NCBI GenBank assembly: GCA_018819225.1
Contig: JAHJQN010000008.1
Location: 177,421 to 241,420, forward strand
Length of the DNA: 64,000 nucleotides
Direction of reading: 5' to 3'
DNA from: Candidatus Micrarchaeota archaeon
GTDB lineage: Archaea > Micrarchaeota > Micrarchaeia > Norongarragalinales > SBBD01
The notes beneath the pieces are model-generated. The model did no database searches. It was not told where the DNA came from and saw only the letters and a list, made by a program, of their open reading frames with translations. Position numbers and translations under genes: made by a program. Shown here in pieces: positions 44,585 through 64,000 of this stretch (positions are counted from its first letter, which is position 1; each line of letters opens with the position of its first letter).

Positions 44585-46111
44585 TTATAATTTCCGCACG
44601 ATGCCGTTCGTCGCATTCACTTCCACTTCATCCCCGTCCTTGAACGCCTTCGTCGCCTTCTTCGTTCCCACAATGCACGGAATCCCCATTTCCCGCGAAA
44701 CAATCGCCGCATGGCACGTCAAACCTCCTTCATCCGTGACAATGGCAGCGGCTTTCTTCATGGCAGGCACCAAATTCGGATTCGTGGCAACGGAAACGAG
44801 AATGTCCCCTTCATTCATCTTACCCATTTCATCCGCATGCACAATGATTTTCACGGTTCCCCGCGCTACTCCGGCGCACGCCGGCGTGCCTTTCAACTCC
44901 CGGACATCCACCTGCGCTTCTTCGGCAACAATCAAGGACCGGTATTTTTCAACATGGTTGCCAGTAAATATTGTCATACGTCCGTTATCCGCATAGAAAA
45001 CGCTTTTCTGAAGGCGCGTCTCCAATTCGGTTTCATCGGCTCGTTGATTTTTCTTCAGCAAGGCCTCCGCCTCATCCATCGTGAGATAGCGCACGTGCTT
45101 CAAGGAAACACCTAAACGTTTGCCTATTTCCGTCAAGAACCCCCGAACATTTCGAGAGGAACGGAAAATCACGTCCTTCCGCAACCCCTTGAGGTGCACG
45201 CACGCCCGAGCCACTTGAATCCATAACCGTTCCTCTCCTGAAAATTCCATCCGGTTTTCCATATCCCGTTGTTTCACGGCTAACTCCTTTTGCTTTTCCC
45301 GCATTTGCCTTAATTGCTCTTCCGCATTCGCGTTTTGATGAAGCTCCGCCTTCAGCAACCGAATGAAATACGCCCGATCCAGTATTTCCGGCCCGTCGTA
45401 ATGGTATTGCATCCAATCGAATTGCCGAACATGCGAGTCTAATGGCTTGTCCAAAACGGGAAACCGGTGCACGCCCGTTAAAATGGAGTTTTCATCCGTT
45501 TCGAAAAGAACCAAGAGACTCTTATCGGACTGAACGGCCTTGAGCATCTCAAGAAAGTGCTCGTCCTGCTTGATGAATAACGACCGCTCGGCCGGAGTGG
45601 TTAAGATGCTGAATAACTCCGCCGTGGATTCGGATACGTTGTTTTCCACGCGCTTCGCTTCGATGAAATCCATAATTTTATGCGAAAGGGCGTAATGCTC
45701 GAAATCCAGGACGTTGATGACGTGCCCCCACACGCACATGCGAATCCATTCATTCGACAGGGATCGGTACTCCTTCGCCAAATCCTCGTTGGAATAAACG
45801 GAAATATCTGCATCCCGCAAGCGAAACGCATGCAGTTCCAACGCATTGCAGGAAGCGCGTTGTTCTCGGTCCACGCGTTCGAAAAAGCCGGGTTCCTGCA
45901 GGCGTTTCATCGCGCGAACCCCTTGATCTTCCCACGTGTTTAAACCGGTCAAGTAATCCCACTTGCCGTTCTGCCATATGAAGAATCCCGCTTCATCGTT
46001 GGCTCCGAGAATGGGTTTCATGTGTCCGGTGGCCGCTTGCATATACGTGATACAGTGCGGCATCGGGCTCCCGAAATCCGTTGCGATACTCTTGTATTTC
46101 GACATGGACAT
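44585..46111 (-). CDS. PEP-utiliser mobile (phospho-His) domain protein, paralogue 6
   Basis: C-terminal GDILV...T.P..VPAMKKAAAIVTDEGGLTCHAAIVSRE.GIPC; helical N-terminal region of about 400 aa; no ATP-grasp domain. Confidence 0.88.
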   Translation of the reverse strand: MSMSKYKSIATDFGSPMPHCITYMQAATGHMKPILGANDEAGFFIWQNGKWDYLTGLNTWEDQGVRAMKRLQEPGFFERVDREQRASCNALELHAFRLRDADISVYSNEDLAKEYRSLSNEWIRMCVWGHVINVLDFEHYALSHKIMDFIEAKRVENNVSESTAELFSILTTPAERSLFIKQDEHFLEMLKAVQSDKSLLVLFETDENSILTGVHRFPVLDKPLDSHVRQFDWMQYHYDGPEILDRAYFIRLLKAELHQNANAEEQLRQMREKQKELAVKQRDMENRMEFSGEERLWIQVARACVHLKGLRKDVIFRSSRNVRGFLTEIGKRLGVSLKHVRYLTMDEAEALLKKNQRADETELETRLQKSVFYADNGRMTIFTGNHVEKYRSLIVAEEAQVDVRELKGTPACAGVARGTVKIIVHADEMGKMNEGDILVSVATNPNLVPAMKKAAAIVTDEGGLTCHAAIVSREMGIPCIVGTKKATKAFKDGDEVEVNATNGIVRKL

Positions 46112-46160
46112 CCATCACTAAATATTTCTCAAAAGAATTAGTGAAATCAAATGCAGCGAT

Positions 46161-46192
46161 AACTATAAAGTGATTGTGCCGCCATATGCCTG
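46161..46192 (-). promoter_or_regulatory. TATA box plus imperfect palindromic operator upstream of paralogue 6
   Basis: TTTATAGT (46169-46162) and CCGCCATATGCCTG (46179-46192). Confidence 0.5.
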
Positions 46193-46216
46193 GTCAGGAC
46201 AAAGGGCATGGAGGTA

Positions 46217-46885
46217 TCAGAACGCAATCAAGCCCAAATCCCCTTGCTTCGCCAGCTCGCAAAGGAGTTTGTTCTCCGCTTTCCGTAAGTGCTCGCGGTA
46301 CGTGTTGCGCGGAACCTTGATTTTTTCCGCAATGTCCTCGAGACTCATCTGCCGAGGCAATTCATAGTACCCATACCGATACGCATGCAGAAACGCCCAA
46401 CGCTGCTTCTCAGTTAACTTGGTAAACACGTTGGGAACGAACAAATTAAGGGGCTCTTCCTTCAAGCTGATGAGATCAATGGTAGCCGCTTGTTTTTGGC
46501 GCTTGACGGCTTTATACAAATCCAGCAACCGCTTCTTCTCCCAACTGGCTACCGTCCAATGCTCAAAGCCTCCGGTAATCACTTGCGGTTTAATGAAGAA
46601 AATCGACTTGTCCACAACCGTCGTATGAAACTGTTTGTTTCCCGGAAGGCGATAGAAGACTTGATTGCCTTCCACGCGATTGATGGTAATGCGTTTTTCT
46701 TGCGTTAACGCGCGAATATACCCGTCACGGTCTTTTCCTTCCACGATAACGACTTTGTTGACCCACAACTTACCCCGATCGACAAACGCGTTAAGATAGT
46801 ACGTTGCCGCCCGGACGTTGAAGCGCTTGCTGAGGTTAATGGCCACTGATTCTTCATGCCAGACCTTAAACTCCGCTATCCACAT
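46217..46885 (-). CDS. Bat-like (HTH_10) transcriptional regulator B
   Basis: LTEKQ..AF..AY..GYYE.PR..SLEDIA........YREHLRKAENK. Confidence 0.9.
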   Translation of the reverse strand: MWIAEFKVWHEESVAINLSKRFNVRAATYYLNAFVDRGKLWVNKVVIVEGKDRDGYIRALTQEKRITINRVEGNQVFYRLPGNKQFHTTVVDKSIFFIKPQVITGGFEHWTVASWEKKRLLDLYKAVKRQKQAATIDLISLKEEPLNLFVPNVFTKLTEKQRWAFLHAYRYGYYELPRQMSLEDIAEKIKVPRNTYREHLRKAENKLLCELAKQGDLGLIAF

Positions 46886-46903
46886 ACGAAAAAGACTCCT
46901 GGC

Positions 46904-47764
46904 TCAATCCAGCGAATCCGTAATAGTGAATATCTCCTTAAAAGGCTTGTTCAAACGGTACGCGGATTGCATGGAAGCGTATTCCTTCTCGAAGCCCGCC
47001 AGCCACGTCTGTCCCTCATACGTATCGCGTTCCCTTTTCCTGTCCACCCACACCACTTCAAACGGCACATCCGATAATTCAAGGGCATGCGACAAGGCGA
47101 TGCCCGCTGCCAGAAGCCCCTCCAGATTTCCGGGCTCGTCTTCATACGCACGCACCACCCACTTCCTTTCCTTCAATAAATCCAGGAGAAACAAGTAGTA
47201 ACACTGAGCGGTTTTTTCTCCGCCATACGGAATCGCGGAATACGTCTTGTCAATCACGCGATCCAGTTTCGAGGTCGCCATGACCACATTCAATAATCGC
47301 AAGAGTCCCCGCGACAGCGTAATGACTTCCAAACCCATTTTCTTGTCTCGCGCAATCGCTCCATCGGGTTTCCATACCTCCGGAAACACCGTTACGCCGG
47401 CCTCGCCTCTTCGAACCCACAATTCCAACAAATCATAATACACTTCCCGCGCTTTAGTGCCGCGAGGCGGTTCCTTCGCCAGTTCCCAGACGCTGTCCGC
47501 CACCTTTTTTCCAAGCAGTCCCCCCTTCAATTCCGCCTCATTTTTTTCGAACACCTTTTTCACGGTCTCGTCGGATAACGCTTCCACCCAAGCCAACTGG
47601 TGCTTTAACATTTCCCCATAACGCGCCATGCCAGGACCCTTCAAATCCGAAGCCAACGTTCCATTCAAGTCATACAACGCGACGCGCTTCAATTGATCCA
47701 TTGGAATAGGAGACGGTCGATCCAACGTTAAAAGTCCGGGAACATTTTGACTCAACATCCTCAT
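46904..47764 (-). CDS. HAD-superfamily hydrolase resembling enolase-phosphatase E1 (MtnC)
   Basis: motif I YDLNGT, VFPEV, motif II LSRG, motif III GEKT..CY, motif IV YEDE..NL. Confidence 0.65.
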   Translation of the reverse strand: MRMLSQNVPGLLTLDRPSPIPMDQLKRVALYDLNGTLASDLKGPGMARYGEMLKHQLAWVEALSDETVKKVFEKNEAELKGGLLGKKVADSVWELAKEPPRGTKAREVYYDLLELWVRRGEAGVTVFPEVWKPDGAIARDKKMGLEVITLSRGLLRLLNVVMATSKLDRVIDKTYSAIPYGGEKTAQCYYLFLLDLLKERKWVVRAYEDEPGNLEGLLAAGIALSHALELSDVPFEVVWVDRKRERDTYEGQTWLAGFEKEYASMQSAYRLNKPFKEIFTITDSLD

Positions 47765-49296
47765 CCCTCTAGTTTATTGATGACTCCGTGATTCGCCTTG
47801 ACTTCCAGCAAATCCCCGTCCTTGAATACGCGCGTCGCCACCTTCGTCGCAATCACGCACGGCACGCCCAGTTCACGAGAAACAATGGCGGCATGAGACG
47901 TAATACCCCCTTCATCGGTCACGATGGCGGCCGCACGTTTCATCGCAGGAACCATTTCCGGACGCGTCGACCGCGCGACCATCACATCCCCTGTTTTCAC
48001 TTTTTTTAATTCATCAGAAGACAATACGATTTTTGCTCTTCCCACCGCATAGCCCACGGAAGCACAGGTTCCCATGACATTCGTCATCGTGGCATCCCAT
48101 TCCTGTCGACGCTCGCCCAGTAACTCTTTTTCTTTTCGAACCGCCTCGTTTCCTCCGTAAATAGTCCAGTCATTAAAACCGTAAACAAGGAGATAACGTT
48201 TCATGCGTTGCTCTAAAACCGTTTTAAAACGCGGCTGGTGCAGTTGCCTTTCCGTTAATTCTCGCGGTAAAGCGAACAATAACATCGAATGGGCATACCC
48301 GAACCGTTTCGCAATCTCTTGCACTAAGCGATTCGATTCATAAACGGCCATCAGCATGCCGGTTTTTCGCACATCCTGATAGAACGCAATCTTTCCCACT
48401 AAATCCAACAATGCTTGGAGGCTCTTTGAAATAGTTAGTTCGTTCAACGCTTTTTCACGCACGATCACTCGCTGACGATCGTTTTGCATTAACTTCATTA
48501 ATTGGCGTTCTGCATCAACTCCAACAGACAATTTCTCTTTTAATTGAGACACAAAAAATGCTTCATCTAAATAAGGTGTTTTCGCGTAGCTGTTATTTAT
48601 CCAATAATACGTTCGAACGTGTTTTTGCAGAGCGGTCCAAATAGAAGGAATGGCATTCAATGCGTGCACCACTTGTTTTTCCGAATGCTTTTCAAACAGT
48701 GATTTCACTCGCGCATCCGATTGAATGCGCTTCAATATCTCGAGAAGCGATTTTTCTTCCACGATATGAAACGGTTCCCCCGCGATGGGCGTCATCTCCA
48801 CAAAATACTGCGAATACGATTTTTCCTTCCCTTTCTCCTTCAAAATCCGCATCAGCTGATCGCGTACCTCATGCTCTAAGTAGAAATAAGCGGGTTCAAT
48901 GCAATAACTCGGCACGTAACAATCCGTGTACGCGTCATTCAATTGCTTTTCCCAACGCAACAACTCATGGTCCGACAAAACAGAAAGATTCAGTTGCTGA
49001 ATAGAATGAATCACGCGTTTTAATTTATCCAATTCCGTGATAAAATCGGAAAACGATTTCTCGTAAAGACCTTTTTCGTTCAGTATGCGTTTGACGACGT
49101 GCTCGCCGGTTTTCAACGTCTCGTCTCGGCGGATATAATAACGCATTTGAGTGCGATGGGCCGGAGCGATTTGAAACGATACACACGCTCCCCAGTATTC
49201 CTTCATGCGCTTGCCCATGGGCTCGAGCGGCGGGGAGACCAGCGCGGGAACGCCTTCGGCGAAATACTCATAGTATTTCGGCTTATCGGCCATCAC
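47761..49296 (-). CDS. PEP-utiliser mobile domain protein, paralogue 5
   Basis: EGGITSHAAIVSRELGVPC; HVRTYYWINNSY; QDVRK. Confidence 0.88.
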   Translation of the reverse strand: MMADKPKYYEYFAEGVPALVSPPLEPMGKRMKEYWGACVSFQIAPAHRTQMRYYIRRDETLKTGEHVVKRILNEKGLYEKSFSDFITELDKLKRVIHSIQQLNLSVLSDHELLRWEKQLNDAYTDCYVPSYCIEPAYFYLEHEVRDQLMRILKEKGKEKSYSQYFVEMTPIAGEPFHIVEEKSLLEILKRIQSDARVKSLFEKHSEKQVVHALNAIPSIWTALQKHVRTYYWINNSYAKTPYLDEAFFVSQLKEKLSVGVDAERQLMKLMQNDRQRVIVREKALNELTISKSLQALLDLVGKIAFYQDVRKTGMLMAVYESNRLVQEIAKRFGYAHSMLLFALPRELTERQLHQPRFKTVLEQRMKRYLLVYGFNDWTIYGGNEAVRKEKELLGERRQEWDATMTNVMGTCASVGYAVGRAKIVLSSDELKKVKTGDVMVARSTRPEMVPAMKRAAAIVTDEGGITSHAAIVSRELGVPCVIATKVATRVFKDGDLLEVKANHGVINKLEG

Positions 49297-50822
49297 GTTT
49301 TCACCTTCCGGATGATGCCGTGGTTCGCATTGACTTCCACGAAATCACCGTCCTTGAAGACTTGAGTCGCAATTTTCGTGCCGATGACGCACGGAATACC
49401 TAATTCACGGCTGATGATGGCTGCATGAGACGTTATTCCGCCTTCATCCGTTACAATCGCTGCTGCTTTCTTCATCGCGGGAACGAGCTCGGGTCGCGTC
49501 ATACTGCTTACAAGAATATTGCCCTTCTCCATTTTGAACAGGTCTTTCGAAGCCAGAACGATCTTTACTATTCCTTCCGTGCGTCCAACGGAAGCGCAGG
49601 TTCCACGCACGTCATTAACATCATTGCGCAGTTTTCTCCGCACCTTCCGATACAATTCCCTTGCTTCCGATCCGGCGGCCACATCCACTTTTTCAGGAGT
49701 ATAAATGACAAGGGAAACTCGGGATCGCTCGGATACCTTTCCACTGTTTAGCTTGTGTTTGAGTGCGTCGGAAAATTCAGAACTAAGCATCCCATACCAT
49801 TCGTTCTTCTCAAGACCATTACGCCGACACAATTCATCAAAAAAAAGCATGGCATAATAACATCCGATCATCGAATTTTTCTTTCGTATATCTTGCCACA
49901 ATGCAAATGTCTCAATCAAACGAATGATGATCATAAAGTCTTTATCAACGCCAAATTCTCGGCAGACGCGCTCTTTTTCCTTTCGCGCATGATGGGCGAT
50001 TTGTTTCATTCGAGTGATTTCAGCATCCGCATCCGTCTTTTCAATGAGCGAATCCGCCAACCGTCCCGCAAAATAACTCTCGTCAAGATATCTTGTATGA
50101 AGATAGCTGTTATGAAACCAAAAATATTTTTTCGAATGACGATTGAGTCTACGGAAAAACGAAGGGTGCGATCGCAACGCATGCATGCGCTGGTTATCGG
50201 GAAGCCGAATGGCCGATGCAAGAGCAGGATTCTCATGAACTTGTTTTACCAATTCTAAAAGATCCACCGCTTCTTCAATTACAAAAGAAGGTGAAACAGG
50301 AGCCGTTAAAATGGCGAGATAGCGTGTAAACGCATTTTCTTCGGAGCGTTTTCTTAAAATGGGTTTAAGACGTTCAGTCACCAGATCCTCCGAACGCATA
50401 CTAAAGGCATCTGCGAGAAGGGGCAAACCCCACTGCTGAAGGAATGCTTTAGAAAAAAGTTCGTACTCATGAGACAATTCCGCATCTGACAGTTGAGTCA
50501 AATCGATTTCATCTAATGATCGACAATGAGACTGAAAATTGGCTTCATGTTTTCGCCATTGAGAAATGACGCCGTTAAGGTATCCCGGTTGGATCATCTC
50601 TTTCGATACGATATCATGAGCGATGCGCTTGAGATCGTCCGCCCAATACATACAATAAGCAAAGTTGTTTTCAATATAACATAGAATGACGTCATATGCG
50701 GTTCCGTGAATGGCCCGAAGAGTTTGAGTGGACGCAATTCCAGGAAACGACAATAAAAATTGGGTACCCTCCGTTCCTTGCACCATCCAGTCCTTTTGTA
50801 TCAAGTCTTGAAAACGATTCAT
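49293..50822 (-). CDS. PEP-utiliser mobile domain protein, paralogue 4
   Basis: EGGITSHAAIISRELGIPC; true start MNRFQD at 50822 (TGATG overlap with the upstream stop). Confidence 0.88.
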   Translation of the reverse strand: MNRFQDLIQKDWMVQGTEGTQFLLSFPGIASTQTLRAIHGTAYDVILCYIENNFAYCMYWADDLKRIAHDIVSKEMIQPGYLNGVISQWRKHEANFQSHCRSLDEIDLTQLSDAELSHEYELFSKAFLQQWGLPLLADAFSMRSEDLVTERLKPILRKRSEENAFTRYLAILTAPVSPSFVIEEAVDLLELVKQVHENPALASAIRLPDNQRMHALRSHPSFFRRLNRHSKKYFWFHNSYLHTRYLDESYFAGRLADSLIEKTDADAEITRMKQIAHHARKEKERVCREFGVDKDFMIIIRLIETFALWQDIRKKNSMIGCYYAMLFFDELCRRNGLEKNEWYGMLSSEFSDALKHKLNSGKVSERSRVSLVIYTPEKVDVAAGSEARELYRKVRRKLRNDVNDVRGTCASVGRTEGIVKIVLASKDLFKMEKGNILVSSMTRPELVPAMKKAAAIVTDEGGITSHAAIISRELGIPCVIGTKIATQVFKDGDFVEVNANHGIIRKVKT

Positions 50823-52351
50823 CAGCCCTTCACCTTGCGCACCACGCCCGCCGTCGCATCGACGTCGACACGATCCCCATCGTTCAGTATATCCGTTGCA
50901 TGCTTCGTTCCCACAACGCAAGGAATATCGAGCTCGCGGGAAACAATGGCGGCGTGACACGTGATCCCACCCGTATTCGTGATAATGGCCGCTGCTTTCT
51001 TCATCGCAGGAACCACATCCGGATTCGTGGCATTCGCCACCAGAATGTCGCCCACATTCATTTTGGAAAGATCGCGGGGGGATAAAATCAATTTCACGAC
51101 GCCTGTCGCACGACCCGGACACGCGCACGTGCCCTTCAATTCATTCGTTTCTTTTACGACCGGTTTCTCCGTAAACTGCTCAATGTATTGTCTCGCATCC
51201 GATCCCGATAGAACAACGGTGTCGTTGTTTTCACTGATCGCCGTGCATATTTTCATGCGTTCTTTGAGTTGTCCGCGATCAATGGATTCCTTTCGAAGCG
51301 CGTCCGACATTTCCTTCGGAAGCAGCATGCGCGTTTCTTCCACCGAAATCATCAACCGGCGAGCAATTTCCGCAACGAGCGGGCGCATCTCAAAATACGA
51401 GCGGAAAAACATGTCTTTTCGATTCGCTTTGAAAAATAATAGTTCCGCCGCCATATCAAACAGGCGCCGCTCCCCCGAAGATAATTGAAGTTCCTTTAAT
51501 GCCGCTGCACGCGTTTCTTCCGTGCTCACTTCCTTCTCCATAATCGCCGTCAAATCCGCCTTCACGTCTTTTTTCTTCGTCAACATACCCGCAACAACGG
51601 TTACAAAATACTCGAGGTTCCACGAATCGTTTTCGTACGTACACGGTAGCCAGGCAAACTGCTCCACATGATCCAAGAATGTTTTGTGAATCAAGGGGAA
51701 CGCCATCAATCCGTTTACGATTTCTGAGGGTTCCTTCGATGAAAATAATTGCAATGCATTCGAATTATCTTGAACATGGGAAGCCAATTCCAGCAACGCC
51801 ATGTCCTGCTGCTTTCCCAGCGTGCGTTTTCTGGGAGCCGTTAACGCAGCGAAATAAACAGGGGCATCATGCTCTTTCATCAAGGAAGCCAATTTGTCTT
51901 CGAGAATGCGGTTGAGCCGCAACGAAAAAGCGCCACTGGTATCCATCGCCGGAGCAATCCACGCCCAACCTCTCATGGCTTTGATGCGCTTTCCGTATTC
52001 CTCCAATAGGCTAACGAGCTCGCTATTGGTTTTTTCACTGAAATCCATTTCAAAAATTTCAGAGGTTAGAACAAGGAGAGATTCGCCTAGGCGATAGGTT
52101 TCGCGAATGGCTTGATCCACCAACTCAGGACTTTCGACTGCTTTTTTTGCCATCACGTCGCCCACGCGCTGAAAGTCTCCTTTCCGAACGTAATAGGACC
52201 AGAAATGGTTTTCAAAAACATGTAGCATGCCCTTGAACGAGATGCCCAACGCTTGATGCATGGGACTATTTTCCCCGCAACCGGATTCAAAGTAAACAAC
52301 GGGAAATAGGCTGGCGTCGTTTCGCGAGTCCTCTAGAATCCATTTCTCCAT
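50822..52351 (-). CDS. PEP-utiliser mobile domain protein, paralogue 3
   Basis: TGGITCHAAIVSRELDIPC; HVEQFAWLPCTY; KANRKD. Confidence 0.88.
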   Translation of the reverse strand: MEKWILEDSRNDASLFPVVYFESGCGENSPMHQALGISFKGMLHVFENHFWSYYVRKGDFQRVGDVMAKKAVESPELVDQAIRETYRLGESLLVLTSEIFEMDFSEKTNSELVSLLEEYGKRIKAMRGWAWIAPAMDTSGAFSLRLNRILEDKLASLMKEHDAPVYFAALTAPRKRTLGKQQDMALLELASHVQDNSNALQLFSSKEPSEIVNGLMAFPLIHKTFLDHVEQFAWLPCTYENDSWNLEYFVTVVAGMLTKKKDVKADLTAIMEKEVSTEETRAAALKELQLSSGERRLFDMAAELLFFKANRKDMFFRSYFEMRPLVAEIARRLMISVEETRMLLPKEMSDALRKESIDRGQLKERMKICTAISENNDTVVLSGSDARQYIEQFTEKPVVKETNELKGTCACPGRATGVVKLILSPRDLSKMNVGDILVANATNPDVVPAMKKAAAIITNTGGITCHAAIVSRELDIPCVVGTKHATDILNDGDRVDVDATAGVVRKVKG

Positions 52352-53839
52352 TTAAATGACCCCTTGAATCTTACGAACAATTCCATGCGAAGCCCTCACG
52401 TCTAATAGATCGCCATCCTTAAAGACGGACGTCGCGATTCTCGTTCCCACAATGCACGGAATATTGAATTCCCTGGAAACAATGGCCGCATGACAAGTAA
52501 TTCCGCCATCGTTCGTGATAATGGCCGCTGCTTTTTTCATGCCCCGGACAAAATCAGGCGTCGTCATAACGGTCACTAATACGTCGCCGTCCTCAAGTTG
52601 ATCCAAATCCTGCGCTTTCAATATCACTTTAGCGGTTCCTTTCACGGTTCCGCCACACGCACACGTTCCCTTCAGTTCAGAAACCTCGTCTTGAGTTTTT
52701 GAAACGATTCCCTGCTCGGCCATAAATTGGGATGCCGTTACGCCGTCCATCAACTGAGCCACACCACTATTAACATGCAAGATCCGGATTCCCGTTTTTT
52801 TCGTAATCCGTTTTCCATTCAATGCATCCACGACTTCTTTAGGGGTGTGGGCATAAACTTCTTTAGCGCTCCAACCCAACCGGCGTGCAACCTCGTACAC
52901 CAAATTCCGATACATAAAGTGACTTTTGGTAAAGCATTCCTTCTTGTAATCCATGAGAAATGAGGCAATGCGTATGGTTTTCAAAACCACGCGATCCGCT
53001 TCAGTGAGATTGAGTTCGTTTTCCATCATTGCTTGTCGCTCGGGTAATCGATCGTAATAGGCACGAATGTCTCTCAAACGCTTGTTCGCATCAAATGATG
53101 GCTTCAACATGCTGCGAACCGTTTCCTCGAAATGTTCGCGAGTCCATGTGTCGCCCGCATAATCAAACGGAATCCAGAAAAAGCGCTTTTCATGATCTTC
53201 CAACAACGAATTGACTGGATCGGAAACAACTCCGTTCAAAAAAGCCCGCACGTCATGATGATCCTTGACGGATTCAACCATGTTGAGAAGCGCTTCCTCC
53301 TCTTGGGTAGCAAACGGTTTTTTCGGCGAGCTCTCCAACAACGCGAATACCTGTCCGAACGCCAGGGTATTCCCGCGCTCGTTTAGTGCGTTTTTGATCG
53401 CGTCTTCCGCTTTTTGAGCCAGCACATCCTTTACGGCAAACGGAAACGGTTCTCCATACGGATACACCGCATCGTAGTGCTCCCAGTAGGATGCAATGAC
53501 TTTCGAAAACGAATGATTCGTTTCCTTCGAGTAGTCTTTCTGGGACAACTCGTGACTGAACGACAAAAAGCGCAGCATCTCATGAACAAAACGCGTCTCC
53601 AGCTTTTCCACAAAATAAGGATCTCTCTGAATGGTCTTAACACAGTGCTCTTCGACGCGCTGAATATCCTTTTGATCGAAGAATGCGGCAAACGGACCAT
53701 TTGGATCGAAGGAACAAATCAGTTTCTTATAGCTCGTTCCCACCGCCTTATCCATGGATTTCGTATACGATACGCAAAGATTGTGCAGCATATGCAAGGG
53801 AAAACCGTACGGCCGCTCTTGCACCAATACCCAATTCAT
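52352..53839 (-). CDS. PEP-utiliser mobile domain protein, paralogue 2
   Basis: DGGITCHAAIVSREFNIPC; HEKRFFWIPFDY; MDYKKE. Confidence 0.88.
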   Translation of the reverse strand: MNWVLVQERPYGFPLHMLHNLCVSYTKSMDKAVGTSYKKLICSFDPNGPFAAFFDQKDIQRVEEHCVKTIQRDPYFVEKLETRFVHEMLRFLSFSHELSQKDYSKETNHSFSKVIASYWEHYDAVYPYGEPFPFAVKDVLAQKAEDAIKNALNERGNTLAFGQVFALLESSPKKPFATQEEEALLNMVESVKDHHDVRAFLNGVVSDPVNSLLEDHEKRFFWIPFDYAGDTWTREHFEETVRSMLKPSFDANKRLRDIRAYYDRLPERQAMMENELNLTEADRVVLKTIRIASFLMDYKKECFTKSHFMYRNLVYEVARRLGWSAKEVYAHTPKEVVDALNGKRITKKTGIRILHVNSGVAQLMDGVTASQFMAEQGIVSKTQDEVSELKGTCACGGTVKGTAKVILKAQDLDQLEDGDVLVTVMTTPDFVRGMKKAAAIITNDGGITCHAAIVSREFNIPCIVGTRIATSVFKDGDLLDVRASHGIVRKIQGVI

Positions 53840-55297
53840 TCACTTCACCAGCTTCCTGACTTGACTATGATTCGCATCCACTTCAACCCAATCCCCTGTT
53901 TTCAATATTTTGGACGCCACACGCGTTCCGACCACACAAGGAATCCCGAACTCGCGAGACACGATGGCGGCATGACACGTGATTCCTCCTTCATTGGTCA
54001 CAACGGCTGCCGCTTTCTTCATCGCAGGAACAAAATCCGGCGAGGTCATGGACGTAACCAGGATGTCTCCTTTTTTTAAGGAACGGTTTGCTTCATCGGG
54101 ATTCATGGTCACGACCGCGCGCCCCTGTACTTTACCGGGACTCGCAGCAGTTCCAGAAAACTCCACCAATTCCGTTGTCGGACGTGATTTCGGAAACAGT
54201 TTTTCTTCTATTTGAGCCGCTTCAACGCGGGAGTACAGACGAAGAGCGTCTTCAAATTCCTTCCAGAGCACGAGGCATTCCGATCGCTTTTCCAGCTCCG
54301 ATTCCGTAAGTGCCTTGGAAAGAATAAGCGGCATTTCACTCGGCAAAGCGTTCTTGACGTGTTGCAGGGAATAACCGCTGCGCCGGGCGAATTCATTGAG
54401 AAGCACATCGAGATAGTGTGTCGCCTGAAGAATCACTTCCTTTCGGTAGTCCTGAAACCACGCAAAATAATCGATAATTTCAACGAGCTTTTTCTCCGAA
54501 TCAGTGAGTTTCAAAAACTCCATGAGCACATGCTTCTCTTTTTGTTGCATTTTGAGGGCGCCATTCAACGAACGAATGTAATCCCGAGCCTCCTTTTCTC
54601 TTAACAGCAGAACCATTTCGTTTTGGAAATAATTGGCGTCCAAGACACGGGTGCGCCAGTAGGAGTTCTGCATCCAGAAATATTGTTTTGCATGTGCTTC
54701 CAACTTCTTTTTTAGCGCAGGATGAGATGCAAAATCACTTTTCTTCGTCAGTTTTTCGTCCACCGCAATCTGCAATAAATCGATTTCTTGCCGGACGGAA
54801 AACGAGGGCTTCGAACCCGTTGAAAGAATGGAAATCGTGTGTTCGCGTTTTGGGGTGTTCTTCAATAACTGCTTGAGCAACTGCTCGCCTTGAAGGTATA
54901 CCGGTTCAACCGCTGCTCCGGTCACGCCCCAAGTAACATACTGCTCAAAATAATCGCGATGCAACTGAATCAATGCTTCATCCGAAAGGGATTCCAACTT
55001 TTTCGATTGAATGCGAGGGTAAAAACGCTCCAAATCCACCGTGTCTTTCTTTAAACGCGTTTCCAACCGCTTCATTTTCGCAGGATCGCGCAGTTGATCG
55101 ATAATCAATTGACCGAGCTCGCACAAGGGAGGCATTCGGTTCGCCCAAAGCACTACCCCATTCTTGAAAAACAAGTAGGTGTCCGGCCAGCTTTTTCCAT
55201 AGAACGAACGGGTGGGTGCGAGAATACACCGAAGAAACCAAAGCAGCGGCTGAATCGATGCCTCACGCTCCCACTTGAACCACTCCGGAAGTTCCAT
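53840..55297 (-). CDS. PEP-utiliser mobile domain protein, paralogue 1
   Basis: EGGITCHAAIVSREFGIPC; true start MELPEW at 55297 after an AGGGGA SD. Confidence 0.88.
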   Translation of the reverse strand: MELPEWFKWEREASIQPLLWFLRCILAPTRSFYGKSWPDTYLFFKNGVVLWANRMPPLCELGQLIIDQLRDPAKMKRLETRLKKDTVDLERFYPRIQSKKLESLSDEALIQLHRDYFEQYVTWGVTGAAVEPVYLQGEQLLKQLLKNTPKREHTISILSTGSKPSFSVRQEIDLLQIAVDEKLTKKSDFASHPALKKKLEAHAKQYFWMQNSYWRTRVLDANYFQNEMVLLLREKEARDYIRSLNGALKMQQKEKHVLMEFLKLTDSEKKLVEIIDYFAWFQDYRKEVILQATHYLDVLLNEFARRSGYSLQHVKNALPSEMPLILSKALTESELEKRSECLVLWKEFEDALRLYSRVEAAQIEEKLFPKSRPTTELVEFSGTAASPGKVQGRAVVTMNPDEANRSLKKGDILVTSMTSPDFVPAMKKAAAVVTNEGGITCHAAIVSREFGIPCVVGTRVASKILKTGDWVEVDANHSQVRKLVK

Positions 55298-55343
55298 AAT
55301 ATCCCCTGAAAAGAAACAGCGCAAGGAATAGGGATGCGAACCC

Positions 55344-55375
55344 ATAAATAAAAGGGTATACCCCGATATCGGGGT
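55344..55375 (-). promoter_or_regulatory. TATA box plus perfect 16-bp palindromic operator upstream of the paralogue operon
   Basis: ACCCCGATATCGGGGT (55360-55375) just upstream of TTTTATTTAT (55353-55344). Confidence 0.6.
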
Positions 55376-55376
55376 T

Positions 55377-56039
55377 TTACGGAGATAGGGGAACGATGGC
55401 TTGCTTGGAAGCCGAACGCAAAACCTTTCCCTCTGCTTTTCGCAACTGCTCGCGGAACGTGCTCTCGTGCACGTGCTTCTCTTCCGCCAATCGCTCCAAC
55501 GAAACCCGTCGCGGGAAATCATAATACCCTTTTTCAACGGCTTCCAGCAGCGCCGTACGTTCCTTGATGGAGAGCGCGGCAAACGTGTTCGGCAGGAAAA
55601 AGTCAATGGTATCCTGCCGGATGCCCAACAACTCGGACGCGATGCCTTTCAAGCGCTTCAGTTTAGTTAACAAGCGCCGGATATGCGCTTTTTTCCAGCT
55701 TCCGATCGTCCAATACTCCGCCCCGCCTTTCGCAATCAATGGGCCTACGGTAAAAACGGTTCCGTCGAGTACGTGCGCGTGAAACGTATCCACTGAAACG
55801 TGCTCGTAAAAAATCTGGTCGCCCTCGCGCGCCAGAACGCGCAACTTTTTCGATCCCTTTATCACGTCCGCCAATTTTTCCTTTTCGGACCCTCCAACGT
55901 AAAGGACTTTGGTGACGAAGCCTTTCTCGCCGCGCTTGAACGCATTCATGTAATAAGAAGCGGTAAACGCGTTTATCGTACTCGTCGCTTTTACGATGAC
56001 CGACTTCTCGCGCCGGATTCGAATGCGGGCCACCCACAT
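55377..56039 (-). CDS. Bat-like (HTH_10) transcriptional regulator A
   Basis: LS.KE..AL..AVEKGYYDFPRRVSLE.LA......STFREQLRKAEGK; paralogue of 46217-46885. Confidence 0.9.
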   Translation of the reverse strand: MWVARIRIRREKSVIVKATSTINAFTASYYMNAFKRGEKGFVTKVLYVGGSEKEKLADVIKGSKKLRVLAREGDQIFYEHVSVDTFHAHVLDGTVFTVGPLIAKGGAEYWTIGSWKKAHIRRLLTKLKRLKGIASELLGIRQDTIDFFLPNTFAALSIKERTALLEAVEKGYYDFPRRVSLERLAEEKHVHESTFREQLRKAEGKVLRSASKQAIVPLSP

Positions 56040-57901: not shown

Positions 57902-58184
57902 TTAAGACCACGTCTAGGTGCAGGCCGGTACGTTTTCATGCCCCATATCCGCAAAAAGCGTACCATTCCCGATTTAAATAGACTGCCCCATTCGGTGTAC
58001 AACGAAATACTCTTCACAGAAGGTCAATAGCGGTAAAACTGTATTTTACAATGGAACTCGTTCCCTTGTGTTTCATTTTGAGAGTGCTTTGGGTCCTCAC
58101 TAAACCCTCAAGTATTCGGATTCATTTGTTCGGAAGGAAATGGATAATCAAATTGCTGCAAACAATGTAACTATTAAAGAAATA

Positions 58185-60461
58185 CTATAGGTCTGTTCTG
58201 GGTGAGGCTGTTATCTGTCTATGCTTAAGAAGCTGTACTAAATCACGTGCGCATAGTTCCGATTCTGTTTTTCCAAAAATTAGTTTATCAATTTCTTCAC
58301 CAATCTCTATAAGTTCGTTATCGGACAGACTTTTACTTAGTTTTTGGGTAATGTTTACTACGTCGGATTTTTGAATCCCTTTCAACTTAGCAGGGATTGG
58401 AATTTTACTAATTAATGAAGCTTCAACCTTAAGAGCTCCGCCCCCCAGCGGTACACCATTTAATTCACAAATTAATCTAAAAGTGTTCGAGTTAAGCCAA
58501 ATCCATACCGTTTGGGGCTCTATTTTTGCCCGCGAAGGTAATAACGTAACAAAGTTCGCGTCGGTAACTAGATTACCACTGTCACAAACCAAATAACTTC
58601 GCAGGGGACCAGAAGTTACTCTCGACGTTATAAGTGCACCGAAGTGCCTACTTTGAAAAGATAGCTGATACCAAAATTTTGGAGCCTGCGGGATTGGCGA
58701 GTTATTGGCGGATTTTGGTACATAGCTATTTGTCCTTACAGCAGAAAGCTCTTTGATAGGTTTACCAGATGCACCATTTCCACCGTATTTCAATTTTCCA
58801 CAATCCCGTATATGTTTTGCAAGATTCGGCGAAAATATTTTTAATTGATTAACATTCCATCTCTCTTGCCATACTTTAGGAAATGATTTAACTAATTTCA
58901 TATCCTCCGGAAGAACGCCACTGTTAAAGTCAAGCACGTAGATATTAGTATCCTTTGGCCCAATTACTAACGGCCCATGGTAAGTTAACTTATGGATTGC
59001 AGGTCGCGTAAATTCGCGCGGAATTGTGAGATTATATTGAACGGTTTTTCCAACACGAGTCAGTTTTATTTCATATAAATCATCTAAACTAGTACTGGTT
59101 TTACGAACATAAAAAAATTCATTACAGCCTGTTCTTAGACCTTGGTGGATTTTCCACCCAATTTGTCTGAATGAATATATTGCTTCATCTTCTAGATAAC
59201 TTGGAAATCGTATTCCCCTACTCTCTTGTGGCAACTTTTCCGCAATATTATTTCGTCTCCTTGGTTTAACCCAATTTTTGAAAGTTACGCGTAAATTACC
59301 ATAATCGCCTGAATTATTTACCTCATCTAACCACTTCCAGAATTCCTTACCTACCACCGATTCAAGAAATTCAGTTAGATTGTCATTACTTGCGCCGGTG
59401 ATTTCAACGTAAGGTATTCCTAGCTCATCTTGTCTCTTCGATTTGGCTCCTTTCGAATATACGATTACACTTGTTGGTATCTGAGCGCCTGGAAACCAAT
59501 TGCCCCGCCTATGTGTAATTACCCCCCTTACAACTCCTTTTTTAGCTAAGAATTGCCTGAGAGGCTCACCATATTCTCGTTCCATCCAATGGTTAGTAGT
59601 TACAAAAGCAATTTCTCCAGTTTCATTTGAAATCAGGTAGGCTAAGATCATTGCATACACTGATAAATCACTGTACCCTGATAGCTTCTTTAGCAGAAGT
59701 ATAACCTCATTTTCCTTATTCTTAGCGAATGCAATTTGATTAAGACTATCAAGCAAAAAAGTTCGATAGTCAATAAACTCTTTAGTAAATTTTTCTTCAG
59801 TGAAGTTTGGAATTTTTTGAAGATTTTGATAGCTTATATAAGGTGGATTTCCTACAACCGCCCCATAAGTAAAATTGTCTTTGACATTGAATCTGGTTAC
59901 TGCCCATTTAAACACATCTGAATGGACTATACTCTTTTTATTATCCAGAATTAATCCAGCAGTCGTTATTAGCAAAGAATCAATTTCAATTCCAATAACT
60001 TTAGAAGTCGGAAAAAGTTGGCTTGCCGCTAATAAAAATGTACCATGACCCGCCATTGGATCAATGATATATTTTGATTCTTTTGATAATCCCGATAGTG
60101 CAAACTTTGCAACATATAGTGGAGTAAAAAATTGGCCTAAAGCTTTAGTTCTATCTCTACCAACAAACTCCGTATACCTCTCCCATAAAAATAAAGGGTT
60201 TTTTTCCGTTTCTATGCAGATGAATTGAATGAGTTCAATATAAGCGCGAGATTTTGTTGTATTCCATGTAACTTTATCATAAGCTGCAAACTTTTCCTTA
60301 AGTTTTACGATGGGTTGTTTATTCAATAATGAATTTATTGCATTAGTATAGATCAAAGTTCGTTCATATAACGAAAAAGGCATTAACAGAGTACGAATCT
60401 TCCGCGAAACCATATCATAATTAGGGGTTTGGTTACCTTTTTCGCATCTTATTAGAGTCAT
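58185..60461 (-). CDS. N6-adenine DNA methyltransferase (gamma class, N6_Mtase/Eco57I-like) with C-terminal target-recognition region
   Basis: GQFFTP, IDPMAGHGTFL, GIEID, VGNPPY, QGLRTGCNEFF, GGGALK. Confidence 0.88.
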   Translation of the reverse strand: MTLIRCEKGNQTPNYDMVSRKIRTLLMPFSLYERTLIYTNAINSLLNKQPIVKLKEKFAAYDKVTWNTTKSRAYIELIQFICIETEKNPLFLWERYTEFVGRDRTKALGQFFTPLYVAKFALSGLSKESKYIIDPMAGHGTFLLAASQLFPTSKVIGIEIDSLLITTAGLILDNKKSIVHSDVFKWAVTRFNVKDNFTYGAVVGNPPYISYQNLQKIPNFTEEKFTKEFIDYRTFLLDSLNQIAFAKNKENEVILLLKKLSGYSDLSVYAMILAYLISNETGEIAFVTTNHWMEREYGEPLRQFLAKKGVVRGVITHRRGNWFPGAQIPTSVIVYSKGAKSKRQDELGIPYVEITGASNDNLTEFLESVVGKEFWKWLDEVNNSGDYGNLRVTFKNWVKPRRRNNIAEKLPQESRGIRFPSYLEDEAIYSFRQIGWKIHQGLRTGCNEFFYVRKTSTSLDDLYEIKLTRVGKTVQYNLTIPREFTRPAIHKLTYHGPLVIGPKDTNIYVLDFNSGVLPEDMKLVKSFPKVWQERWNVNQLKIFSPNLAKHIRDCGKLKYGGNGASGKPIKELSAVRTNSYVPKSANNSPIPQAPKFWYQLSFQSRHFGALITSRVTSGPLRSYLVCDSGNLVTDANFVTLLPSRAKIEPQTVWIWLNSNTFRLICELNGVPLGGGALKVEASLISKIPIPAKLKGIQKSDVVNITQKLSKSLSDNELIEIGEEIDKLIFGKTESELCARDLVQLLKHRQITASPRTDL

Positions 60462-60462
60462 T

Positions 60463-62349
60463 TTATTCTCCTTTGAGGTACCACTTTCCTTTCTTCTGGT
60501 AGGCTAAAGACGCCAATAATTTTCGAAAATCATTCGCATTTACAGATATATCCTCCCCAGATGATAGTGTTTTTCCAAGATATCTGCTGAAAAGATAATC
60601 GAAAGTTCTCTCGTCGGGTGAATTTCTGTCAATTTGTGATAGCCAAGTGCGTAAATACGATACGGTGTTTGGCGCATTCCGGGGGATTGGGTTCTCCTGC
60701 GTATTTAATGGTTTTTGAGTTAAAATAATCGGGTCTTTTTTTACTGCACCGTTTGTTGTAGTTTGCTTAAAGCTGGTTTGTTTCTTGGAAAGTATTGAAC
60801 TATTTATAATTTCAAAACCAGCTTCGATTATTGCTTTCCGTAAGGCATTCCATACTTCTTTTCGAGTGTTATGAAACACTATAGTCATATATCGGCCGGG
60901 TTTTAATATTCGAAAATTTTCTTTGAATGCAGAACATAAAAGCTCACCATAAATTTCTATTCCTTTATTTTGAACACTACTAACAATAGTTTCGTAGGTA
61001 TTGTCGGTAAATTCATCTAGCCATGATTCAGAGAGAAAATTTAATTCCGAGTACTGAAGATTATTTCCAAAAGGAGGATCTGTAAATATGTAGTCGACAG
61101 TGTTTTCCATAAGGCCAGAATTTTGAGAAGGTTTAGTATAGACTTGCGCATCGGGTTTCCATTTACTTACTTCCTCCACAGCGTTCGTTAGCGTTATCAA
61201 TTTATTTCGCACACCTTTGAACACATTTTTTTCAACTGGACAGCTGCTTATGTAAAGTGCTCCAGGTTGTGCACTTGTATTAATTGGTTTTGGGTTCCCA
61301 TGCTTAAACACAAAACGCGTCATTAAGGTTGCGTGGGCCGCATTGTAACTGGATACTAAAAGAGCAAAGTAATCTCGGATTTCTTTATCTGAATTTTTAA
61401 CCGCGTCAAAGAGTACTGAAATGGCTAAAAGATTTCTAGGAGTATAGAAATGGTGGACGTGGGTAATATCTTGATGATATCCAGATCGGTACATTTCTCC
61501 CCATCGAACAGACCCAGATAGCATTGGAAATGGCTTCATCCACGTAGGTAGTTTTGTTTTTGATATTTTTTCGACGAGGATTAAATCATCTTTATTTACT
61601 CGTCTAGACCAGTTCCTACCTCCTTTAGAGCCGAATACCAAAATCGGTCTTCTCTTCACTCTTGTAACTTGTTTTTTTAGTAGTTGATCGTGCACTTGTT
61701 CGGTTGCTCTGTGAATCTTATCGCTAACAAGGATTGCTCCACACTTAGTGCATTCTCCTTTGTTTTGGAAGCCTCCATCCTTGAAATTAATAAAAGTATC
61801 AATAAAAGCAAATTCTTCTTCACACTTGGGGCATATTACGATATCACTCCAATAAGCGAATTGAAATTTCTCTGTTATTCCTTGTTCATTCTTAATATCG
61901 TAGATCCAATTCCATTTATTTTCAATGCGAGTTAATTGGTTTTCAAGTAAAGTTCTTAATCTCTGCGCGTTTGTATTACGCAGGATCGTTTTTCCAATAA
62001 ATGTTGGAAGTACGCCTAGATCTATTGATATGCTTCTTCGTTTACCCCATTTCACGGCTTCAGTCGAGCTTATTCCCATACCCCGAATTAACTCTGGTTT
62101 TGGATTAGCGCAAGCTGCAGCTGCAAGGCTTGTACTACAAGTTCCAGCAAACCCATCGTATACTAAATCTCCAGGTTTTGTGTGAGCTAAGATAAACGGA
62201 ATGATGCTTTCATAGTTTATTTTAGTAGGATATGGATGCACATTATAGAGTGCTCCGGTTCTGGAAGAGTATGCCGGTTTATAATAGGGGTTGAAAACTA
62301 GCCTACTTACGCCAACAGACCGCGAGTTAATGTTGTCATTCAAATACAT
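60463..62349 (-). CDS. amino-DNA methyltransferase with zinc-ribbon insertion (PglXI/DUF1156-like architecture)
   Basis: HPYPTK, VYDGFAGT, CPKC...CTKC, DYIFTDPPF..NLQYSELN, RILKPG. Confidence 0.85.
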   Translation of the reverse strand: MYLNDNINSRSVGVSRLVFNPYYKPAYSSRTGALYNVHPYPTKINYESIIPFILAHTKPGDLVYDGFAGTCSTSLAAAACANPKPELIRGMGISSTEAVKWGKRRSISIDLGVLPTFIGKTILRNTNAQRLRTLLENQLTRIENKWNWIYDIKNEQGITEKFQFAYWSDIVICPKCEEEFAFIDTFINFKDGGFQNKGECTKCGAILVSDKIHRATEQVHDQLLKKQVTRVKRRPILVFGSKGGRNWSRRVNKDDLILVEKISKTKLPTWMKPFPMLSGSVRWGEMYRSGYHQDITHVHHFYTPRNLLAISVLFDAVKNSDKEIRDYFALLVSSYNAAHATLMTRFVFKHGNPKPINTSAQPGALYISSCPVEKNVFKGVRNKLITLTNAVEEVSKWKPDAQVYTKPSQNSGLMENTVDYIFTDPPFGNNLQYSELNFLSESWLDEFTDNTYETIVSSVQNKGIEIYGELLCSAFKENFRILKPGRYMTIVFHNTRKEVWNALRKAIIEAGFEIINSSILSKKQTSFKQTTTNGAVKKDPIILTQKPLNTQENPIPRNAPNTVSYLRTWLSQIDRNSPDERTFDYLFSRYLGKTLSSGEDISVNANDFRKLLASLAYQKKGKWYLKGE

Positions 62350-62351
62350 TG

Positions 62352-64000
62352 TTAAACACTCAAAATTTGCTTAGCCATTTCATTCAAATTATTCATATCT
62401 TTTGCTAGCACTTTAGAGAAAGCTCGTCTGCGTGAAGCAAGTGACTTTGCAACATTGATGTAGTTAGGGTTAGCTGCACACAATCTAACCGCTTTAAGAG
62501 AAATCAGTTTAGCTTCTTGTGCTAATGAGCGGTGAAATGTATTATGAGGATTGAACTTTGGAATTAGACTTAATGGCAGTTTGTGAATGTGTTGTTCTCC
62601 GAACTGTCCTTTTGGTTGTTTATTTTTTATTGCGTCATTGATAACTAAACTATTTAACATTCCACAAACGTACCATGCTTCATTTTCATCAGAAGAATCC
62701 CATGCATATAAAGTCTGATCATTAACGAAAGGAAAATCAAACTTAGAGGTGTTAACTACCGCCGCTGCAACATTCGTTCCACCGGCACCGTAGAGAACAA
62801 GATATTTCGAGTGATTTAATACCTGATCAGTAAGCTTATTTTTTCGATTGAGCCAAGTGTTAAGGGTTTTATTTCCGAGTCTTTTAAGTTTTTGGTCAAT
62901 TTTATTGAACCATTCTCTTGCTTTTCTATGGTTACGAGAAATTAAGTCGCCATATTTTAAAATTCTCCATTTATTTTCATATGCTTCAATTGGAAGAGCG
63001 GCATAGGCGCATTTTCCTACAATAAAGGGGAGTAAGGAGTCTGATTTAAGTGTAGTAAAAATGTATTCGCATTCTATAGTTCCTTCAAATTCAATTTTAT
63101 CCCATGGTGACTTGTTTAAACGATTTGCTCTTTCTATACTCGAAGTTTCCACACTTAATATTTTAGCCTTTCTATTCCCAATTATGTTAACCATTACTGC
63201 CCTTCTTGGCATCAAGTCAGCGCCTTGGCGGAATAGATCTTGATAACCCTTTTTAGATGTACTTCGATAGATTGAATTTTCATCAAACCAAGTTTTTGAA
63301 TCTAAATTATTAAGGTGTAATGAGCGTTTCTTCTTCCAAATTAGTTTATTATATTCGTTGGGGTTACCACTTACCTCGATACGCGGTAGTTCGATAGGCA
63401 ACCCAGAACCAGTACCTTCATAAGAACCAAATATGACGCAAGCGGGTCTTCCAAAAAGAGGGCTAACCTTTTCCAAATCCCAAAGCAGATCAACTTTCAT
63501 AGGAGATATTTGTCTAAAGCTTGACAAACGAAATGGGCTATGTTGATCCCCATTTAATATCACCCGAGGAAGCACAAACGCAAATATTCCATTCTTACGT
63601 AAATAATGTGCAACAGAGTGGACTGAGAATACCGTAGCAATTTCCATATGGTGCTTTGACTGCGCTGACGGAGTAAGGTTATATTTGTCGATTAGTTTTT
63701 CAAGTTGAGATTTGTATCTAGCAGCAGGGAAAGAACTCATAGCAAGCCACGGCGGGTTTGACAGGATAATGTCAAACCTTGCTTTCAACAAAGACGGTCT
63801 ATAGGTATTTTTCAAAACGAACGCCCAGACATTATTGCGACGTTCGCGTATCCTAATTACTAAATCGTCAATTAATTTAAATGAAGAAGAAGTTAATACG
63901 GTTTTTTCTTGTTCATTTAATTGTACTTCATGGAATATTTTATTTAGGTTTTCGTTCATTCTAGCTTTTACGAATTTTTCGGCTAAATTTCCATATACAA
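62352..64000 (-). CDS. C-terminal part of a type IIG-like RM enzyme / N6-adenine methyltransferase (5' end outside the window)
   Basis: FDIILSNPPW, FAFVLP, QGA.L.PR, TaqI-C-like EAWYVCGMLNS; frame is open to the window edge. Confidence 0.82.
   Translation of the reverse strand, partial: VYGNLAEKFVKARMNENLNKIFHEVQLNEQEKTVLTSSSFKLIDDLVIRIRERRNNVWAFVLKNTYRPSLLKARFDIILSNPPWLAMSSFPAARYKSQLEKLIDKYNLTPSAQSKHHMEIATVFSVHSVAHYLRKNGIFAFVLPRVILNGDQHSPFRLSSFRQISPMKVDLLWDLEKVSPLFGRPACVIFGSYEGTGSGLPIELPRIEVSGNPNEYNKLIWKKKRSLHLNNLDSKTWFDENSIYRSTSKKGYQDLFRQGADLMPRRAVMVNIIGNRKAKILSVETSSIERANRLNKSPWDKIEFEGTIECEYIFTTLKSDSLLPFIVGKCAYAALPIEAYENKWRILKYGDLISRNHRKAREWFNKIDQKLKRLGNKTLNTWLNRKNKLTDQVLNHSKYLVLYGAGGTNVAAAVVNTSKFDFPFVNDQTLYAWDSSDENEAWYVCGMLNSLVINDAIKNKQPKGQFGEQHIHKLPLSLIPKFNPHNTFHRSLAQEAKLISLKAVRLCAANPNYINVAKSLASRRRAFSKVLAKDMNNLNEMAKQILSV

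Follow-up and report, generated by a model that had tools for sequence, protein, structure and literature searches.

A tandem array of six probable acceptor subunits of two-component small-molecule dikinases in a Micrarchaeota genome

The genome of Candidatus Micrarchaeota archaeon, a DPANN archaeon (here G000; an assembly of 1.37 Mb in 8 contigs, 90% complete), contains an array of six co-oriented genes, A to F, with two HTH_10 regulators and one HAD-fold gene among them. The array lies in a stretch of 64,000 nucleotides (nt), G000:C7:177421-241420, that was analyzed over its full length and is called the window below; coordinates of array genes are window positions, and all of these genes are on the minus strand. 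The six proteins are most probably the H-type components of RPH-family two-component small-molecule dikinases, in which a substrate domain and a swivelling phosphohistidine domain share one chain and the ATP-grasp domain is a separate protein, the I-type component; in this lineage a single I-type protein would serve the whole bank. The reading is drawn from domain content, predicted fold, synteny with I-type genes in relatives, protein fusions and the pattern of conservation, all of which the analysis shows.

In order of transcription, the array runs HTH_10 regulator 2, a 79-nt gap, F, E, D, C, B, a 286-residue HAD-fold gene, an 18-nt gap, HTH_10 regulator 1, a 105-nt gap and A. F (53840-55297, 485 residues, start ATG at 55297) is the first gene of a coupled block that continues through E (52352-53839, 495 residues), D (50822-52351, 509 residues), C (49293-50822, 509 residues) and B (47761-49296, 511 residues); A (44585-46111) encodes 508 residues. 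D/E and E/F abut, C and D overlap by 1 nt (TGATG, the start ATG of C overlapping the stop of D), and the B/C and HAD/B junctions each overlap by 4 nt. An earlier reading of the same DNA from its letters alone (the original prediction) had described six co-oriented genes of about 500 codons, five of them translationally coupled, and both points are borne out, since the sizes span 485-511 residues and the genes from F to B overlap by 1-4 nt or abut.

The sole Pfam match in each protein is PF00391, the swivel-His domain of phosphoenolpyruvate (PEP)-utilizing enzymes, at the C-terminus (E 1e-23 to 1e-27; residues 433-503 in A, 434-504 in B, 432-502 in C, 416-486 in E and 408-476 in F). The catalytic-His motif GG[IL]T[CS]HAAI[IV]SRE is intact in 6/6 paralogues, as had been predicted. 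The N-terminal domains of about 390 residues have no match in a Pfam search, and an alignment of the six shows the common motifs H..W..Y, [QK]D.RK and E...R; the N-domains are only 19-26% identical to one another, which agrees with the earlier description of divergent N-termini with shared motifs. Neither PPDK_N nor the PEP-binding barrel was detected in A-F with Pfam or NCBIfam, and the proteins thus lack the architecture of PEP synthase or PPDK (ATP-grasp, central swivel and PEP/pyruvate TIM barrel), having the swivel domain only. This, too, had been claimed at the outset. All NCBIfam matches are sub-threshold, and the strongest is to PEP synthase over the swivel domain. Some NCBIfam alignments extend into the C-terminal half of the RPH, PigC and RedH models, while the PRK08296 models (about 570-630 positions) match mainly in the swivel and at most over the C-terminal 200 residues or so. 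The host's own PEP synthase, PpsA, has a swivel-His domain with the same GGxT[CS]H motif, including the Thr two residues before the His; its swivel is central, however, and accompanied by ATP-grasp and PEP/pyruvate barrel domains, whereas that of A-F is C-terminal and accompanied by neither.

Paralogue D was modelled with AlphaFold from a 14-sequence alignment (predicted local distance difference test, pLDDT, 89.8). The only whole-length structural match to the model is the rifampicin phosphotransferase RPH-Lm (Foldseek E 6e-15), with residues 1-508 of D lying on RPH-Lm 327-867 (VIA Z 21.5, 447 residues, root-mean-square deviation 4.7). The rifampin-binding and His domains of RPH make up this part (PMC4844700). 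The N-domain of D alone (residues 1-398) aligns with RPH 326-752 at Z 12.3; by sequence, identity to RPH is 16-18%. The N-terminal 400 or so residues of the model are helical and do not form an ATP-grasp, so that the structural comparison proposed with the original prediction arrives at the RPH substrate domain and not at a stand-alone ATP-grasp enzyme. Because the model matches RPH 327-867 and its N-terminus is not an ATP-grasp, A-F are best read as H-type components of two-component small-molecule dikinases.

In an HMM alignment to RPH anchored on the His domain, the invariant Lys312 of D coincides with K670, and R666-E667 are matched by the [QK]D of the motif common to the family. According to Stogios et al., R666, E667 and K670 are needed for the second phosphotransfer in RPH (PMC4844700). 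The match of [QK]D.RK to R666-E667-x-x-K670 is suggestive only. RPH-Lm (PDB 5FBT, 5FBS, 5HV1; PMC4844700) thus resembles A-F in the predicted fold over 327-867, the C-terminal His domain and the R-E-x-x-K region; it differs in being a single chain with an N-terminal ATP-grasp, which A-F lack. Nothing points to rifamycins as substrates of these proteins.

The two halves of the proteins are conserved very differently. The swivel domains of A-F are 51-64% identical to one another, and 51-77% identical to their orthologues in G009, a relative of another genus, while the N-domains are 28-46% identical to those of the same orthologues. Gene conversion was considered as the source of the constant C-termini and rejected: the DNA of the swivel-coding parts shows only 64-73% identity, which means that selection, and not gene conversion, maintains the constant C-terminus. 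A constant carrier that would dock on one donor, combined with diverged acceptor pockets, is the pattern that a shared-donor model predicts from the sequences. The pockets have diverged strongly from one paralogue to the next, and a separate substrate for each is therefore probable.

Orthology was taken from a quick maximum-likelihood tree, in which B, C, D and E pair with G009 counterparts at 98-100% support and F does so weakly, at 80%. The orthologues of B (L003:3910-5439; 51% identity, 100% support), C (L003:5436-6944), E (L003:8452-9945; 48% identity, 100% support) and, with the weak support noted, F (L003:2459-3907) lie together in G009. A forms a clade with orthologues in G005, G006, G009, G017 and G020 (98% support) that spans three families; it is the most widely conserved lineage of the six and adjoins the I-type gene in relatives. 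A one-to-one orthologous array in another genus, together with swivel DNA that is only 64-73% alike, dispels the concern, raised with the original prediction, that the array might be an artefact of assembly. The array is old, real and maintained. It is also part of a larger complement, as the host has 16 H-type genes in total (22,965 bp, 1.7% of the assembly). Shortened H-type copies occur at C6:111329-112474 (381 residues) and C7:89668-90729 (353 residues); in the former the swivel is split over two overlapping matches or frames, suggesting frameshift or decay.

The partner that A-F lack is present in relatives, most clearly in G009. The G009 locus consists of an NFACT gene, an I-type gene (320 residues, PF01326 E 4e-99), a 197-residue membrane HAD, an orthologue of regulator 2, orthologues of D and E, an extra E-like copy, orthologues of C, B and F, the counterpart of the 286-residue HAD-fold gene and an orthologue of A. 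G005 and G006 have the I-type gene first, followed by the 197-residue HAD (HAD197), an orthologue of regulator 1, and A. Of the 40 relatives searched, 15-16 have an I-type gene, mostly beside H-type arrays, and in at least 11 it adjoins H-type genes. Between families, the I-type proteins are 63% identical. Stand-alone PPDK_N frames of about 320-420 residues occur in 15/22 genomes with at least four PF00391 matches versus 1/19 with three or fewer, an association that is to be read as a pattern and not as a statistical test, because kin are not independent. Several I-type matches were flagged for internal stops; in the one case checked (G017, L006), the match runs past the gene's own stop.

The wider family is large. 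Among 1.84 billion proteins, a profile of the N-domain picks out 6,665 representative clusters at E up to 1e-3, mostly of about 500 residues. Within the phylum, multi-copy genomes fall mostly in the host's order, with up to 29 PF00391 matches in relatives. Some members are fusions: P0099 joins PPDK_N, the N-domain of this family and a swivel domain in one chain, P0006 joins an H-type protein to a HAD domain, and P0068 joins a MerR-type helix-turn-helix to an H-type protein. P0010 and P0011 contain three or four H-type units per chain (1500-2309 residues), and these tandem polyproteins could be gene-calling artefacts. The fold, the synteny in relatives, the fusions and the conservation pattern all support the original suggestion of a bank of diversified substrate-plus-His subunits that would be charged in trans by a shared ATP-grasp.

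That prediction named no characterized system with this layout, and here it needs correction. Characterized two-component dikinases of the same kind are HpeHI of Rhodococcus, CreHI of Corynebacterium and the phenylphosphate synthase PpsAB(C) of Thauera (PMC12167813, PMC9618137). HpeH has been modelled as a swivel domain plus a rifampin-binding domain, HpeI is an ATP-grasp protein with a crystal structure, and the catalytic His is essential (PMC12167813). As judged from domain architecture and published description, HpeH, CreH and the Thauera PpsA resemble A-F in combining an RPH-like substrate domain with a C-terminal swivel-His in one protein, and the relatives of the host encode the ATP-grasp as a separate protein of about 320-360 residues. 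A phosphatase can also figure in the pathway: in the Hpe case this is HpeD, whose closest characterized homologue is NagD (PMC9618137).

There are differences as well. A-F are smaller (485-511 residues versus about 71 kDa for HpeH), and their swivel domains, like the I-type proteins of this lineage, closely resemble the organism's PEP synthase, unlike those of the characterized systems. HpeHI, CreHI and PpsAB are one-to-one pairs for phenolic compounds, whereas the host has 16 H-type genes and relatives have up to 29 PF00391 matches per I-type gene. The array also has no aromatic-catabolism genes nearby, has HTH_10 regulators attached and has HAD partners without Asp+2. The I-type partner that belongs to each of the known systems was not found in the host assembly. 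In the literature, nothing relevant was found on an H-type family in Micrarchaeota or DPANN archaea, and no paper was found describing a form with one donor and many acceptors. The combined H-type architecture is thus known, and what is new is the proposed service of many acceptors by one donor in archaea.

By analogy with these systems, the ATP-grasp module would pyrophosphorylate the conserved swivel His, and the gamma-phosphate would then be lost. The swivel domain would swing back to its own helical substrate domain and pass the phosphate to a bound small molecule, possibly via the [QK]D.RK site that aligns with R666-E667-x-x-K670 of RPH. One stand-alone I-type gene would serve the entire H-type bank of the lineage, and the adjacent HTH_10 one-component regulators would set its expression. 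Both phosphotransfer and the sharing of one donor among many acceptors are inferred from the features described above, and the same is true of the parts assigned to the regulators and the HAD-fold protein.

Several results weigh against this scheme. No stand-alone I-type gene was found in the 90%-complete host assembly by PF01326 search and tblastn; PpsA carries the sole PPDK_N domain, and the expectation of a stand-alone PPDK_N donor in the same genome was not borne out. A tblastn search for an I-type remnant over the host assembly (E up to 10) likewise returned only PpsA. The ancestral insertion site, between the NFACT gene and its other neighbour, is closed up in the host, where the two genes abut directly; the module is therefore absent from this position. 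The arrays show no consistent link to any substrate, downstream enzyme or transporter. In four relatives, the additional genes near the arrays are a permease fragment, Fic, a Kazal-domain protein and a purple-acid-phosphatase-like protein, and no metabolic partner recurs among them. Finally, a search of PDB sequences with the N-domain profile alone gave chance-level matches and did not reach RPH, so that homology of the N-domain rests on the predicted fold and the His-domain-anchored alignment.

As no I-type gene was found in the assembly, the gene is either part of the missing 10% or so of the genome or replaced in function by the ATP-grasp of PpsA. A rather unlikely alternative dispenses with any dedicated ATP-grasp in the host: either PpsA charges the swivels in trans, with ATP at its ATP-grasp or with PEP at its barrel, or the H-type proteins work by themselves as transphosphorylases, shuttling phosphate between phosphorylated and unphosphorylated small molecules. 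The closed-up ancestral site is consistent with it, as is the combination of a missing donor with six intact genes that keep the catalytic His. The host PpsA (C2:53610-56054) is complete, with all three domains; its ATP-grasp is 43-45% identical to the I-type proteins, and its swivel is as close to those of A-F (52-60% identity) as the latter are to one another. PpsA already has a covalently linked swivel, however, with which free H-type proteins would be in competition. A complex prediction of D with the ATP-grasp domain of PpsA scored 0.26 versus a mark of 0.32 in a run without controls, and it weighs on neither side of the question of binding. HpeH alone does move phosphate from 4-phosphoacetophenone to acetovanillone, but this exchange is slow, at 2.7 nmol per min per mg (PMC12167813). 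Moreover, incompleteness may suffice as an explanation: some 10% of the host genome is missing from the assembly, and completeness is 68-90% in the six other H-rich relatives that lack an I-type gene.

Other sources of a donor in the host were considered. A stand-alone swivel-His protein of 106 residues is encoded at G000:C1:155102-155422 (L010:5103-5423; PF00391 E 1e-27), without a substrate domain, and frames of 107-129 residues similar to it occur in G007, G008, G010 and G025. This bare swivel protein is possibly a free phosphocarrier, or else a remnant. Its two neighbours were rejected as alternative donors, having no Pfam match and no link to H-type loci. The two neighbours of the host's HAD197 homologue on contig C5 were rejected as well: from their sequences, both look like surface or membrane proteins, with no Pfam match and no H-type link. 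In the relatives, frames of 830-913 residues at G012:C21, G032:C13, G028:C8 and G011:C11 contain a divergent PPDK_N matched in pieces, and at least the G012:C21 frame also contains the PEP-utilizers domain. From their sequences, these look like single-chain RPH-like proteins alongside the split system; none was found in the host.

The HAD-fold protein of the array (46904-47764, 286 residues, its start lying within the 3' end of B) has no match in NCBIfam or in Pfam at E up to 1. Its predicted model (pLDDT 90) has a Rossmann-like HAD core with a cap domain and aligns with the enolase-phosphatase E1 structure 1yns at Z 13.7; all 50 of the structural matches listed are HAD-superfamily proteins or designs built on one. 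D32, N34, G35, T36, S151, R152 and G153 are invariant in eight orthologues. Motif I reads D32-L-N34-G-T36 rather than D-x-D-x-T, with Asn replacing Asp+2. In HAD phosphatases, Asp+2 is the general acid/base. Its absence makes phosphatase activity doubtful, and the HAD phosphatase of the original prediction thus stands as a HAD fold and is doubtful as a phosphatase.

Seven orthologous copies of this protein occur in relatives, six of them within the host's family and the seventh in a different family of the order, and each one with resolved neighbours adjoins an H-type gene. The second HAD protein, HAD197, has two N-terminal membrane helices and the motif I D-F-V-G-V; it follows the I-type gene in G005, G006 and G009 (L003:12147-12740 in the last), while the host's homologue, at C5:52347-52946, is apart from any dikinase gene. 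The HAD domain of the fusion protein P0006 has the motif I D-F-S-G-V and is homologous to HAD197. Membership of the 286-residue protein in the same HAD lineage as the P0006 domain was rejected, as BLAST gave no significant similarity. Given these motifs, it is unsafe to name any of the three a phosphatase.

The two regulators that the original prediction placed in the array are indeed HTH_10 proteins. Regulator 1 (46217-46885, 222 residues, PF04967 E 1.7e-17) and regulator 2 (55377-56039, 220 residues, PF04967 E 2.3e-15) each combine a BAT/HVO_2525_N-like N-domain with HTH_10 (PF04967) and are of the ordinary archaeal one-component type. All five regulator 1-like paralogues in the host are directly upstream of an H-type gene, and the regulator 2 orthologue (L003:11490-12137) heads the array in G009. 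In the 105-nt region upstream of A (46112-46216), a TATA-like sequence, CTTTATAG, is a candidate promoter. The 79-nt region between regulator 2 and F (55298-55376) contains a perfect 14-bp palindrome, CCCCGATATCGGGG, at 55359-55372, followed by the TATA-like TTTTATTTAT; this region could comprise an operator and promoter, or the palindrome could belong to a terminator of the regulator gene. Perfect or near-perfect GC-rich palindromes of this length (CCCCGATATCGGGG, CCGGAATATTCCGG and CCGCGCATACGCGG) lie just past the stops of three HTH_10 genes, at window 55359-55372 (minus strand), G000:C1 about 134576-134589 and G000:C6 about 109596-109610, and precede the TATA-like box of the next H-type gene; all three are candidate operators or terminators.

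The close linkage of regulators to H-type genes raises the question of whether A-F could themselves be ligand sensors or regulators, the helical domain binding a signal or DNA and the phospho-His controlling HTH_10 or relaying to the HAD Asp. The MerR-type fusion P0068 would fit such a role. So would the HAD partners, which keep the nucleophile Asp and lack Asp+2 (D-x-N here, D-F-V in HAD197, D-F-S in P0006); in the HAD superfamily, the absence of Asp+2 would lengthen the lifetime of the aspartyl-phosphate. There is also a precedent in PspR of Haloferax mediterranei, a full-length RPH-like/PPS-like protein reported as a DNA-binding repressor (PMC10948481). From its description, PspR combines a His domain with a helical domain of the ligand-binding type and is likewise archaeal and RPH-like; it differs from A-F in retaining the ATP-binding domain and in its reported DNA binding. 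No DNA-binding element was detected within A-F by Pfam, the RPH catalytic motif region is conserved, the closest characterized two-component relatives are enzymes, and 16 sensors in addition to five ordinary one-component regulators would be redundant. A sensory role for A-F is therefore highly improbable.

That the array is a decaying remnant, its H-type genes nonfunctional and drifting after loss of the I-type gene, is hardly credible: the missing I-type gene, the truncated or frameshifted copies on C6 and C7 and N-domains that evolve fast even between orthologues would agree with it, but the frames of A-F are full-length, their His motif is intact and the invariant residues of the N-domain are kept, their translational coupling is preserved and their swivel domains remain close to those of the G009 orthologues.

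Beyond the array, the far part of the window (58000-64000) has a GC content of 0.36-0.37, compared with about 0.51 elsewhere. Two large minus-strand open reading frames in it, 58185-60461 and 60463-62349, resemble genes for DNA methyltransferases or restriction-modification. The low-GC segment, at the end of the contig, is probably of foreign origin.

If A-F are the acceptor subunits of two-component dikinases, then the acceptor half of the system has multiplied to 16 genes in this genome, each of them old, distinct and apparently with its own pocket, while relatives have a single conserved donor gene. It may even be, improbable as this seems, that such a 16-acceptor bank no longer has a dedicated ATP-grasp and receives its phosphate from PEP synthase itself, or that phosphate passes from phospho-His to the Asp of the HAD proteins without Asp+2, in a relay undescribed in DPANN archaea. 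If true, charging by PEP synthase would link the phosphorylation of many small molecules directly with the PEP/ATP node of the cell. The bank may serve to trap or activate scavenged metabolites, or to neutralize toxic small molecules. Tiny symbiotic archaea shed most of their metabolism, and the retention of so large a bank thus suggests that it is important for their way of life.

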